The notes beneath the pieces are model-generated. The model made no database searches and was not told the DNA's origin. It saw only the letters and a list, made by a program, of their open reading frames with translations. A program made the translations under genes and the position numbers. DNA of 24,359 bases from a virus. Of this stretch, positions 11,740 through 14,594 are shown piece after piece; within the stretch, counting starts at the first letter, position 1, and the number at the start of each line of letters is the position of its first letter. The stretch is from positions 1 through 24,359 of IMG/VR virus record IMGVR_UViG_3300049811_000251; one strand, written 5' to 3'.

Positions 11740-11785
11740 CTTCAAAGTCCAATTAGTTGGAGGAAATTAGTAAACTTTTAGTCAG

Positions 11786-11859
11786 TGACCCCAGTGGGAC
11801 TCGAACCCACGACCTACGGATTAAAAGTCCGTTGCTCTAACCATCTGAGCTACGGGGTC
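11786..11859 (-). tRNA. tRNA-Lys(UUU)
   Basis: GACCCCG/TGGGGTC acceptor, ACGGA-CTTTTAA-TCCGT anticodon arm. Confidence 0.95.
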
Positions 11860-12016
11860 CAGTATCTTTAGGAGGAGTATCTCCTACATATCCAGGGAGT
11901 AATCTAATGTTATCGTAGTAAGTGGCCTCATCTACCTCTACCCACTTGCCCTCCCCACGAAATTCTCCTAACGCAGGATATTTAATCCAAAATCGAGGCT
12001 TATCTTGTGTATTCAT
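11837..12016 (-). CDS. small hypothetical protein, 59 aa (not in track; stop inside tRNA-Lys)
   Basis: GGGGA SD, MNTQDKPRFWIKYP...; fills the gap between two tRNAs. Confidence 0.5.
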   Translation of the reverse strand: MNTQDKPRFWIKYPALGEFRGEGKWVEVDEATYYDNIRLLPGYVGDTPPKDTGPRSSDG

Positions 12017-12068
12017 GTTTTCCCCTAAATAGGGACGGAAGGATTTGAACCTTCGACCTACGGATTAG

Positions 12069-12688
12069 CTTCCCACACTACATTACTGTAGCCATACTTT
12101 CGTATGTTGTAGGCTGGACTATATCTTCACCATTTCAGGTGGACGGCGTATAGTCTCTACGCATCCCGTTGTCTGCGGTTTGCTCGGAATTGTCCATAAC
12201 ATCACTAAGGTTTATAGCCCAGTGATATTCTTGGATGTTTTCCGAAATAGCCATCTCCAGTTTATGTGTTTCTCGGCTGAGTTGTAAAGCTCTCGATAAA
12301 GAACCTCTGCAACTACGACTACAAGTAGTGTAACGTTGCGGAGGCTTAACTAAATGAGTTTGCCTTCGTTCTCTTATGAAAACATCACCACACCAAGGAC
12401 ACTTAAGAATTACAAACAGTTTCATCTTATGTCCGTGCATTCTTGCGTGTTCTGATTTACTCATTACACGCAAATTGCATAAACTGTTGTTTTTCTTATC
12501 ATCATTGATGTGATGAACAACTTCATCCGCATTAAGAAGCCTTCCAAGGTGATTTTCTACAACAACTCTGTGATGTAGAACATAACCATTCTTAGTACAA
12601 AACGGATGTTCTGGTACTAAGGCATAGTTATAAACCCCCTTGCTGACAATCTTCTTAATGTTCCACATAAACGCTCCAATTAAGCACA
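12069..12688 (-). mobile_element. group I intron (620 nt) in tRNA-Arg at 34/35, encoding HNH endonuclease
   Basis: R CGTAGAGACTA, S AAGATATAGTCC, P3 GATGGC/GCCGTC, P8 CACC-TGAAAT-GGTG; exon ends in U, intron ends in G. Confidence 0.9.
12135..12668 (-). CDS. intron-encoded HNH homing endonuclease with C-terminal Zn finger
   Basis: HRVVVE.HLGR.L...EVVHHINDDKKNNSLCNL; CPWC...CSRSC; GGAG SD before ATG 12668. Confidence 0.9.
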   Translation of the reverse strand: MWNIKKIVSKGVYNYALVPEHPFCTKNGYVLHHRVVVENHLGRLLNADEVVHHINDDKKNNSLCNLRVMSKSEHARMHGHKMKLFVILKCPWCGDVFIRERRQTHLVKPPQRYTTCSRSCRGSLSRALQLSRETHKLEMAISENIQEYHWAINLSDVMDNSEQTADNGMRRDYTPST

Positions 12689-12712
12689 AAGTCCGTTGCT
12701 CTATCCGCTGAG

Positions 12713-12907
12713 CTACGCCCCCAAATTAGTCTCCTTTCGTTGCTCTATCCGCTGAGCTACGCCCCTAATCTTGAGCCACTTAATAAGTTCATAGTAATCT
12801 GAAAAGATAGGAGAAGAGGCAACGAACCTCCCATCTTTCTTTTCGCCTGTCGAAAGGAAAGTACCTACTTTCCCGTTAGAAGCCGTACACTGATAACAGG
12901 TAATCAT
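12713..12907 (-). CDS. hypothetical protein
   Basis: 64 aa, ATGA coupling; C-terminus encoded by the duplicated tRNA fragment. Confidence 0.55.
   Translation of the reverse strand: MITCYQCTASNGKVGTFLSTGEKKDGRFVASSPIFSDYYELIKWLKIRGVAQRIEQRKETNLGA
12738..12766 (-). repeat. duplicated 5' fragment of tRNA-Arg
   Basis: 28 nt (12738-12765) identical to 12694-12721. Confidence 0.9.
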
Positions 12908-13101
12908 TCTTGTATAGTTTCTGAAGGAAGTTTGATACTTACGTTATCCCCTAGACGCACTCGTGCATCTAAGTCCTTTTCACTCTTCCCATTCACGAAA
13001 ATAAATCCGTTTAGGGCTAAGACTGAGAGGGTATCACGTTTGAGCTTTAATCTTTCGATTAAAACTTTCTTCAACGCAACGGTTTTGAGTTTGAATAGCA
13101 T
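12904..13101 (-). CDS. stand-alone S4-like RNA-binding protein
   Basis: LKRD.....LNGFIFVNG....D....V..GDNVSI fits the S4 motif; GGAGG SD before ATG 13101. Confidence 0.7.
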   Translation of the reverse strand: MLFKLKTVALKKVLIERLKLKRDTLSVLALNGFIFVNGKSEKDLDARVRLGDNVSIKLPSETIQE

Positions 13102-13112
13102 AATTCCTCCAG

Positions 13113-13200
13113 CGGAGACTGAGGGACTCGAACCCTCACCGGACATTATCCGGGCTTGTTTTCAAAACAAGTGCAGCAAACCTTTATCTGCCTAGTCTCC
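13113..13200 (-). tRNA. tRNA-Ser(UGA)
   Basis: GGAGACT/AGTCTCC acceptor, anticodon loop TTTGAAA, long variable arm, G73; atypical A8. Confidence 0.9.
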
Positions 13201-13252
13201 ATCAGTAGCCCCGGCGGGACTCGAACCCGCACGCCTTGCGGCAAGGGATTTT

Positions 13253-13878
13253 CTTTACCACATCACTTTCGTATTGTGGTCTGGACTTTCTCTTGACCAT
13301 TTCAGGTCCGCCGTGTAAAGTCTCTACACTCACTGATTTCTCAGTTAGCTCGGGGTTTCCATGACGAAAGGATTCTCCGAATTAGCGGCGTCCACTTAAC
13401 AAGTTACTATTCCTTGTTAAGGCTCTTAAAGGATGTGAGACTAGGTAACGGTGATTTATGATGGCTTTTTATTCCAGCACACTTTTTAGAGCAATACGGA
13501 CCTGTGTTGCTTTTATTCCTATTCCTTTCTCGTGCAATTCTGCTAATTTTTGCACCAGAAAGAAAGAAGAATTCTTTACAAACAGGGCACTGAAATTCCT
13601 GAAGGGGGTATCTCAAAGCATCTATCTTGCAATGAGATCGTCTTTCAAGAATCCTTAGATTGCTCAAATCATCGTTAGTAAAGTCTCCGTCAATATGATC
13701 TACAGTTTCCCACGCTTCCAAGTATCTGCCTAAATGAACTTCAACCAGATACTTTGGATACGATACAGTTGTTCTTTTTCCGTTCTTATACAGAAGACAG
13801 ACGTGCTTACGCCCATCTTTTCGTAAATACGGACCACGAACAACTGCGTCACTGTAAATCACTTTACATCCTTTCTCA
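13253..13878 (-). mobile_element. group I intron (626 nt, IC3-like) in tRNA-Leu(UAA) with HNH ORF in L1
   Basis: IGS GAGCC, P2 CTTAACAAG/CTTGTTAAG, P3 CGCCG/CGGCG, R GTAGAGACTTT, S AAGAGAAAGTCC, terminal G. Confidence 0.92.
13407..13862 (-). CDS. intron-encoded HNH homing endonuclease with C-terminal Zn finger
   Basis: HLGRYL..WETVDHIDGDFTNDDLSNL; CPVC...YCSKKC; GTG 13862 with AAGGA SD (track ATG 13898 lies in the tRNA exon). Confidence 0.9.
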   Translation of the reverse strand: MIYSDAVVRGPYLRKDGRKHVCLLYKNGKRTTVSYPKYLVEVHLGRYLEAWETVDHIDGDFTNDDLSNLRILERRSHCKIDALRYPLQEFQCPVCKEFFFLSGAKISRIARERNRNKSNTGPYCSKKCAGIKSHHKSPLPSLTSFKSLNKE

Positions 13879-13917
13879 AAGTCCCTTGTGTCTGCCATTC
13901 CACCACAGGGCCTGAAT

Positions 13918-14331
13918 CTAGCACAAGGATTCTAAGAAAGCTCCAATTGTTTGGAGTTCCTTTGCGTTTTTCTCAAACGCAGGATCGAAGAACCCGTATT
14001 CTCCGCGTTTCTGGTTCTCCAAAAAGACACGCACCTTTTCCAGCGTTTCCTTGTAATTCTTTACAGCATCTAAGGCTGGAAACTTAGTTCCCTTCGGAAA
14101 CAGTATAGACTTTACTCTGTAATCCGAAGTAGGTAAAAGGTACTCTACTTCAAGGATTTCCTTTTCCAGGATTAACTCATCCAAGGCGAGGAAGAAATCT
14201 TCTTTCGTAGAGGGAGTCAGAGAATCAGCACTTGTGTTGCTGCTAAACTTCGCGGCTAATTCCGTAGCCTTAAGAGGCCCCTCGTTTTGAACGATTTCTT
14301 TGATGATTCGCTTAGTTTTTTCGTTACTCAT
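13918..14331 (-). CDS. putative winged-HTH protein
   Basis: GPLKATELA...ALDELI..KEI; similar to neighbour. Confidence 0.7.
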   Translation of the reverse strand: MSNEKTKRIIKEIVQNEGPLKATELAAKFSSNTSADSLTPSTKEDFFLALDELILEKEILEVEYLLPTSDYRVKSILFPKGTKFPALDAVKNYKETLEKVRVFLENQKRGEYGFFDPAFEKNAKELQTIGAFLESLC

Positions 14332-14594
14332 ACAGATTTCTCCTGAATGAATTGAAAAGTGACAGTCTTATCAAAAAGCAACAATGTCTTAAGGGAGTCC
14401 ATTTCAAACACTAAGAATTGAACCTCCTTTGAATCAATCAAGTCCTGAATAGCTCTTGCAACATTAGTACAGTGGTGAGAGTCTCTGTAGATACTGTACA
14501 GAGCGGCCACAGTCAAAGGACTGTTAATTCTTAAAGCATTCTTGATCTTATTTTTAATAAGATCGTGGTCTGGGTGACGTAATTCTAGTGACAT
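14328..14594 (-). CDS. putative winged-HTH protein, paralog-like to 13918..14331
   Basis: SPLTVAAL...AIQDLI..KEV. Confidence 0.65.
   Translation of the reverse strand: MSLELRHPDHDLIKNKIKNALRINSPLTVAALYSIYRDSHHCTNVARAIQDLIDSKEVQFLVFEMDSLKTLLLFDKTVTFQFIQEKSV

Follow-up and report, generated by a model that had tools for sequence, protein, structure and literature searches.

A phage tRNA-Leu(UAA) gene interrupted by a predicted self-splicing trnL(UAA)-family group I intron with an HNH endonuclease gene in the P1 loop

The tRNA-Leu(UAA) gene of the phage described here is interrupted by a group I intron of the trnL(UAA) family, which is predicted to be self-splicing and carries a gene for an HNH endonuclease. 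With a probability of roughly 0.78, we interpret the element as a self-splicing trnL(UAA)-family intron with a putative homing HNH endonuclease in the P1 loop, for which we propose acquisition by collaborative homing. In textbooks, the intron of trnL(UAA) is presented as "ancient, vertically inherited, ORF-less".

A 2014 review noted that the phage introns known at that time were all located in protein-coding genes, despite the many tRNA genes of phages (PMC3984707). In a catalogue of 5,292 split tRNA genes from bacterial genomes, Williams (2020) pointed out that introns longer than 400 bp may hold genes; phages and nucleases were not treated. Our literature search found no description of phage tRNA introns or of an HNH or other nuclease gene in a trnL(UAA) intron, and as many subscription papers were outside its reach, this absence is not proof.

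Results

Split tRNA-Leu(UAA) gene

The analysed stretch of DNA, called the window, comprises the first 24.4 kb (24,359 nucleotides) of a 102,290-bp IMG/VR virus record and has a G+C content of 41.6%. Every tRNA gene of the window is on the minus strand. Five intact tRNAs were detected by standard scans (Thr UGU, Val UAC, Lys UUU, Ser UGA, and Met CAU). When introns were allowed, ARAGORN reported two further genes: tRNA-Leu(taa) at 13205..13912 (-), whose intron of 626 nt is at position 35, and tRNA-Arg(UCU) at 12029..12723 (-), whose intron is 620 nt long. According to ARAGORN, these two split genes are the sole Leu(UAA) and the sole Arg(UCU) genes of the whole record.

Joining of the exons (13912..13879 and 13252..13206) produced a normal 81-nt tRNA-Leu(UAA) fold with the anticodon loop CUUAAAA, and the exon-exon junction reads ...ACAAGGGACTT/AAAATCCCTTG... 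The insertion point is between U34 and A35. The loop CUUAAAA is regained only if the terminal G is that at 13253; no alternative pair of splice sites preserves both U34 and this G, so the splice sites are fixed. An earlier inspection of the letters alone, referred to as the sequence-only reading, had placed an insertion after U34 of tRNA-Leu(UAA), and both ARAGORN and the tRNA joined in silico agree with it. The coordinates of all features are summarized in Table 1.

Table 1 Features of the split tRNA-Leu(UAA) gene, its intron, and the companion tRNA-Arg(UCU) gene.
Feature	Position	Strand	Remarks
tRNA-Leu(UAA) 5' exon	13879..13912	-	tRNA positions 1-34; ends ...GGGACUU, including U34
Group I intron, 626 nt	13253..13878	-	U1 to terminal G (omega-G) 13253; model R1, Rfam Intron_gpI
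tRNA-Leu(UAA) 3' exon	13206..13252	-	A35 to A73; exon joining and ARAGORN
P1 5' strand	13878..13881	-	C32-U33-U34 and intron U1; pairs with AGAG 13426..13423
P1-extension 5' strand AAAGGAUGU	13866..13874	-	perfect 9-bp complement of 13436..13428; holds the likely Shine-Dalgarno AAGGA
HNH homing-endonuclease gene P0003 (putative)	13407..13862	-	GTG start, 151 aa, stop TAG 13409..13407
P1-extension 3' strand ACAUCCUUU	13428..13436	-	within the last HNH codons
Internal guide sequence GAG	13423..13425	-	pairs with C32-U33-U34
P2 hairpin, 9 bp (CUUAACAAG/CUUGUUAAG)	13395..13421	-	loop holds the HNH stop codon; pairs covary
Ribozyme core	13257..13390	-	aligned to R1
P3	13390..13386 with 13313..13309	-	CGCCG/CGGCG
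P4/P5	13379..13351	-	
P6	13348..13329	-	GAAA loop
J6/7 and P7	13328..13319	-	P7 pairing GACU/AGUC
P8, short	13308..13295	-	GACC-UGAAAU-GGUC
J8/7 and P7'	13294..13284	-	
P9, single hairpin	13280..13257	-	GAAA loop
Split tRNA-Arg(UCU) gene	12030..12722	-	620-nt group I intron, related HNH gene, insertion 34/35

Family membership of the intron

The general Rfam model of group I introns (RF00028, Intron_gpI) gave 25.8 bits for the Leu intron (13449..13260) and 47.8 bits for the Arg intron. The gathering score is 50, and neither intron of the window was detected at this threshold. Because of these low scores, relatives were gathered using the pattern AGAGARAGTCC-N(20-50)-GAAAATCC, which covers J8/7, P7', P9, the terminal G, and the 3' exon. 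The pattern matched 38 viral contigs and at least 120 bacterial contigs. Splicing in silico followed by a second ARAGORN run confirmed split tRNA-Leu(UAA) genes in 21 viral and 50 bacterial cases, every one of them interrupted at CUU/AAAA. The window intron is thus not unique. The verified bacterial set contained 10 cyanobacteria and also many Gammaproteobacteria, Bacillota, Bacteroidota, Chloroflexota, one Planctomycetota, and others; as judged from these assignments, many phyla other than cyanobacteria harbour members of the trnL(UAA) intron family. The intron clades mostly track the host phylum.

The split trnL(UAA) loci on genome contigs (L043-L162) extend far past cyanobacteria, with Gammaproteobacteria MAGs, Bacillota, Mycoplasmatota, Bacteroidota, Chloroflexota, Planctomycetota, Rhodothermota, and Bdellovibrionota as hosts.

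We constructed a covariance model, R1, from 28 trnL(UAA) intron cores, five of them cyanobacterial, leaving the window intron out. R1 matched the window at 13435..13254 from end to end (model positions 1 to 211) with 100.5 bits and an E value of 9e-27; the Arg intron scored 76 bits and the next match 7 bits. An HMM of ORF-less introns also found the window core (E 3e-21). RNAalifold, applied to an unfitted MAFFT alignment of 45 cores, recovered P2, P3, P4, P5, P6, P8, and the P9 hairpin, with compensatory changes in 30 of the 35 family pairs, those of P2 included. Every invariant base of J6/7-P7 (GUAGAGACU) and J8/7-P7' (AGAGAAAGUCC) in this alignment is retained in the window. These comparisons show homology over the whole core between the window intron and the trnL(UAA) intron family, cyanobacterial members included. 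Williams (2020) assigned the classical bacterial tRNA introns, including that of Leu at CUU/AAAA, to subgroup IC3, and the window intron is placed in IC3 because it is homologous to them. Covariance-model classification was one of the checks proposed with the sequence-only reading, and R1, at 100.5 bits, places the core in the trnL(UAA)/IC3 family. This match and the joined exons bear out its description of a phage-borne group I intron in tRNA-Leu(UAA) at 34/35.

Relationship to cyanobacterial introns

The sequence-only reading had called the intron cyanobacterial in type, having noticed GAGCC, then a P2 hairpin, then TGGA. These elements are present at 13425..13391, and the hairpin between them is of 9 bp (CTTAACAAG/CTTGTTAAG). 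The junction GAGCC-P2-GUGGA is common to the window, nine of the 10 sampled cyanobacterial introns (the exception, L090, reads GAGCA), and a few viral ones. Proteobacterial introns read GAGCAC...GUGAAU at this junction, and GAGUGC...GUAGAA is the form of a further group.

A maximum-likelihood tree of 59 cores placed the 10 cyanobacterial introns in a clade of their own (SH-aLRT 100) with the window outside. The neighbours of the window intron in this tree were the viral introns L009, L011, L012, and L021; the tree is a quick one and the window branch is long. The window core was the most divergent of the set, with the longest branch (1.1) and a best identity of 69%, to L012. The designation therefore holds for the family and the junction but not for the placement, which is among viral introns. 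As judged from the junction and the tree, the window intron is a family member with the cyanobacterial junction variant, yet it is not a cyanobacterial intron.

The same gene, the CUU/AAAA site, the U-G wobble with the guide GAG, and the terminal G are shared with the classical cyanobacterial trnL(UAA) intron, as are the GAGCC-P2-GUGGA junction and the order of P3 to P9; J6/7-P7 (GUAGAGACU) and J8/7 (AAGAGAAAGUCC) are nearly identical. Unlike the cyanobacterial intron, that of the window is carried by a phage, has a 151-aa HNH frame in the P1 loop, and has shortened P8 and P9.

P1, its extension, and the ribozyme core

The U34-G wobble of P1 at the 5' splice site can be read directly from the sequence. 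UGAG or AGAG at the guide is nearly invariant among the 45 aligned cores. The +1 pair, in which the first base of the intron faces the nucleotide just 5' of GAG, covaries among 69 distinct introns: 67 are canonical, of four types (A-U in 56, G-U in six, U-A in three, namely the window, L030, and L033, and C-G in two), and two are U-U. This covariation supports the formation of P1 across approximately 450 nt.

The duplex of the P1 extension had a predicted energy of -19.0 kcal/mol, moderately better than random, as 12 of 300 shuffles were as good (z about -2). An extension helix is present in most introns with an ORF in L1, with z values of -1.3 to -3.5 in eight of 12. The loop closed by the 9-bp extension of the window is approximately 430 nt long and contains the nuclease gene. 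This arrangement corresponds to the earlier suggestion that the ORF is looped out of P1: the HNH gene is in L1, enclosed by P1 and its extension.

The 3' end of the intron is AAAG. In the window core, P3 is 5 bp long, P8 and P9 are shortened, and P4 contains an A-C mismatch. Because of these features, and because the core is the most divergent of its set, its activity may be reduced or lost.

A promoter and terminator scan of 11900-14400 detected nothing above shuffled sequences. One promoter-like site was present on the coding strand (13879..13851), from which transcripts would begin downstream of the GTG.

HNH endonuclease gene

The HNH frame is open upstream to an ATG (13898) in the D-loop. 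The homologues start 7-12 residues ahead of the conserved YGPY; this argues against ATG 13898 as the start codon, and for the same reason the most likely start of P0003 is GTG 13862, behind AAAGGA. The frame is open from the D-loop ATG, as described earlier, but this ATG is probably not the start codon. The likely Shine-Dalgarno sequence is located 6 nt before the GTG, in the 5' strand of the P1 extension. At the other end, the last 10 codons overlap the P1 extension, the guide, and the 5' strand of P2, and the stop codon is in the P2 loop. The HNH genes of L009 and L021 likewise terminate in P2.

P0003 matched PHROG 14913 (HNH endonuclease; E 1e-25) and Pfam HNH_3 (E 4e-5; 23.5 bits, slightly below the cut-off of 24.8). 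In metagenomes, 145 homologues with identities of 40-58% were found. H56, N68, C92, C95, and C128 are invariant in 28 homologues (A3 alignment), and C124 is nearly so. The AlphaFold model of P0003 had a pLDDT of 86. I-HmuI (1U3E) was the top PDB match both by sequence (E 0.089) and by fold (Foldseek E 6e-3, probability 1.00). By motif and predicted fold, P0003 is an I-HmuI-like HNH endonuclease.

ORF-bearing introns of the family

ORF-sized introns accounted for 23 of the verified split trnL(UAA) genes, at 14 viral and nine bacterial loci. The sequence-only reading had described trnL(UAA) introns as classically ORF-less; at these numbers, ORF-bearing ones are unexceptional in metagenomic data. 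Twelve distinct introns have the ORF in the P1 loop, and about nine have it in P6. At one pair of loci, L010 and L026, a 302-aa open frame extends from the P1 loop across the core and into P8. BLASTP (E <= 1e-5) joined all but one of the intron ORFs into a single related set, with two motif groups: a YGPY...DHIDGD zinc-finger group, to which the window belongs, and an ELDHIDGD...CPNCH group with a longer N-terminal region.

Three Gammaproteobacteria MAGs (L058, L089, and L147) have trnL introns of approximately 690 nt with a P6 insert in which the longest frames are 54-66 aa. From their frame lengths, these inserts look like decayed nuclease genes.

The window element may be asked the same question. 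It could be a decaying relic, in which the intron or the nuclease is inactive, trnL is effectively a pseudogene or poorly spliced, and the element merely persists. The longest branch of the family tree, the reduced P8 and P9, the mismatches in P3 and P4, and the decay known in the family (the 54-66-aa frames in the introns of approximately 690 nt) would be in line with this. It is countered by the retention of all family-invariant core bases, the full-length R1 match of 100.5 bits, and an intact 151-aa ORF with conserved catalytic and zinc-binding residues; moreover, the record contains no second tRNA-Leu(UAA) gene. We consider a relic unlikely.

Free-standing and intron-borne relatives of the nuclease

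The genomic context of HNH homologues was taken from the viral-contig loci. Among 13 close free-standing viral homologues, 11 (L003, L192-L197, L199, L200, L202, and L216) adjoin an intact tRNA-Leu(UAA) gene, at a distance of less than 100 nt or with an overlap of 10-18 nt. ARAGORN detected no tRNA gene in the locus of another of the 13 (L191). In the thirteenth, L201, the free-standing HNH gene ends 8 nt before a trnL(UAA) that is interrupted by an ORF-less 231-nt intron (R1 143.5 bits). The same HNH type is located inside L1 in five distinct introns (the window, L009, L011, L021, and L033), and more distant homologues adjoin tRNA-Ile(UAU) or tRNA-Arg(UCU). Phages in GenBank also carry such genes. 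In the tRNA cluster of the cultured Salmonella phage PVP-SE1, an unannotated homologue (NC_016071.1 65992-66408, L283; 41% identical) precedes tRNA-Leu(UAA) by 41 nt, and tRNA-Arg(UCU) comes after the latter; in Klebsiella phage RaK2 the homologue precedes tRNA-Asn.

In L193, L194, and L195, the free-standing HNH gene ends 10-18 nt inside the 5' end of tRNA-Leu(UAA), so that the genes overlap.

Free-standing HNH genes of this type adjoin intact trnL, one adjoins an ORF-less intron, and others are intron-borne; for this reason the series fits collaborative homing. The HNH tree was poorly resolved (one starred branch); it did not separate the order of events and does not demonstrate a direction from free-standing to intron-borne.

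The same distribution bears on another explanation, in which the HNH protein is a general nuclease for inheritance or exclusion of tRNA clusters, like SegB of T4, that cuts the tRNA regions of competitors with or without an intron and uses the intron as a safe harbour. Most close homologues are indeed free-standing in phage tRNA clusters, by Leu(UAA), Ile(UAU), Arg(UCU), or Asn, and T4 SegB, also free-standing, targets a tRNA gene region (PMC2988022). Five independent trnL introns with this HNH type in L1 argue against it. In addition, a nuclease that cuts the anticodon region of uninterrupted trnL and is sited there in an intron is effectively a homing endonuclease, so the two readings overlap. 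We regard the exclusion-nuclease explanation as quite improbable and favour a homing endonuclease acquired by collaborative homing.

Uninterrupted trnL(UAA) genes in 16 viral contigs are identical to the joined exons over 22 bp across the insertion site; potential empty homing sites therefore exist. This HNH gene was found near none of these 16 genes. The neighbouring protein (13918..14331, -) had no relatives in the viral collection, and accordingly no sister phage was found in which this locus is either empty or filled. Megablast and blastn searches of the region against 50,697 GenBank phage records returned tRNA-exon matches only and no similar intron.

Companion intron in tRNA-Arg(UCU)

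The 12-mer ACCTGAAATGGT occurs exactly twice in the window, once in P8 of each intron, with 0 occurrences expected by chance. The HNH proteins of the Leu and Arg introns are 33% identical (E 6e-13), both with the CxxC...CxxxC layout. These data confirm the shared P8 sequence and HNH-zinc finger layout noticed in the sequence-only reading. ACCTGAAATGGT with the adjoining J8/7 is also present in 28 other viral contigs. Where readable, the interrupted tRNA in these contigs is mostly Arg(UCU), and none has a trnL intron. By this distribution, the short P8 of the window trnL intron is a form typical of the tRNA-Arg(UCU) intron family and not of trnL introns. The earlier suggestion that the two introns form one family is a reasonable one for the wider HNH family and for IC3 introns, but the introns themselves represent distinct sub-families, and the short P8 is atypical for trnL.

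The shared P8 may reflect common ancestry of the two IC3 families, convergence towards a minimal form, or exchange between co-resident introns. The identity of the Leu and Arg introns at P8 covers 12 nt only, with different flanks, so that recombination between them may or may not be its source.

The first 28 nt of the tRNA-Arg(UCU) 5' exon are exactly duplicated 16 nt upstream (12738-12765 versus 12694-12721, -; 0 expected). This duplication may be a footprint of recombination or homing at tRNA-Arg(UCU).

A phage-wide palindrome, TCCA-N6-TGGA, is present in 31 copies in the window, with 0.4 expected. The largest gap between copies (11762-13941, 2.2 kb) lies exactly over both introns, and subtraction of the 1,246 intron nucleotides leaves 0.9 kb, an ordinary spacing. 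This hints that the introns arrived after the palindrome lattice was set.

A recurrent 603-nt intron with the same short P8 was found in L163, L168, L172, L174, L178, L180, and L183. ARAGORN labels the surrounding gene 'tRNA-Stop(tta)'. Because the exon junction reads CTT/CTAAAC, a wrongly placed splice site in an Arg(UCU) gene is the more likely reading.

Discussion

We infer splicing, cleavage specificity, mobility, and origin from sequence, and propose the following scheme. On folding of the pre-tRNA, exon C32-U33-U34 would pair with the guide GAG approximately 450 nt downstream, and the 9-bp P1 extension would clamp both ends of the loop holding the I-HmuI-like HNH gene. The same helix would mask the ribosome-binding site of the HNH gene. 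Because the extension would hide this site, splicing and nuclease translation are likely to be mutually exclusive, and pairing of the guide with the splice site would likely be accompanied by a block of translation. The ribozyme would excise the intron and restore the tRNA. The nuclease, once made, would cut or nick intron-less trnL(UAA) of co-infecting phages across the anticodon-loop DNA, and repair would copy the intron into the cut gene. As to origin, our proposal is that an ORF-less intron acquired a trnL-associated HNH gene that had until then been free-standing, by the collaborative-homing route.

In collaborative homing, a free-standing nuclease aimed at the insertion site of an intron recombines into that intron (Bonocora & Shub 2009, as summarized in PMC2988022). 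Cases of free-standing nucleases include F-CphI at the psbA intron site of cyanophages, mobE/I-TevIII of T4, and SegB in the tRNA cluster of T4 (PMC2988022, PMC2790892, PMC6083498). The HNH relatives described here are likewise beside the presumed target gene, by an ORF-less intron (L201), or in an intron. They differ from the published cases in that the stages are at a tRNA gene and come from metagenomic contigs rather than crosses. The ribosome sites of T4 intron nucleases are sequestered (PMC2988022), and the P1 extension predicted over the HNH Shine-Dalgarno sequence resembles this arrangement by analogy.

P0003 is similar to I-HmuI, the HNH nicking enzyme of the DNA-polymerase intron of Bacillus phage SPO1 (1U3E), in being encoded by a phage intron and in having an N-terminal beta-sheet followed by the HNH motif. 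In contrast, the identity is approximately 21%, P0003 has a C-terminal four-cysteine zinc module in place of the helix-turn-helix tail, and the gene that hosts it encodes a tRNA instead of a protein. A tRNA-fMet intron with I-Ssp6803I is known from Synechocystis PCC 6803 (Bonocora & Shub 2001, cited in PMC3984707). It differs from the window intron in being in another tRNA gene and in being chromosomal, not phage-borne. I-Ssp6803I is a PD-(D/E)XK enzyme and not an HNH enzyme.

A broader idea, which we put forward only tentatively, is that one I-HmuI-like HNH family may be specialised on the anticodon-loop DNA of phage U34 tRNA genes (Leu UAA, Arg UCU, and Ile UAU) and may repeatedly have left a free-standing position next to the tRNA gene to enter ORF-less IC3 introns, giving rise to mobile tRNA introns.

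The series of HNH genes beside intact trnL, beside intron-bearing trnL, and in the intron is a rare natural record of the possible assembly of a mobile intron. The cultured phage PVP-SE1 belongs to this series and makes the idea testable. A phage-borne trnL(UAA) intron with a putative homing nuclease, with relatives in phages and at least nine bacterial phyla, would provide a concrete mechanism for horizontal spread. If the HNH-family idea is true, the 'ancient' trnL(UAA) intron would be carried from one bacterial phylum to another by phages, and this would explain its patchy distribution, long debated between vertical inheritance and transfer.
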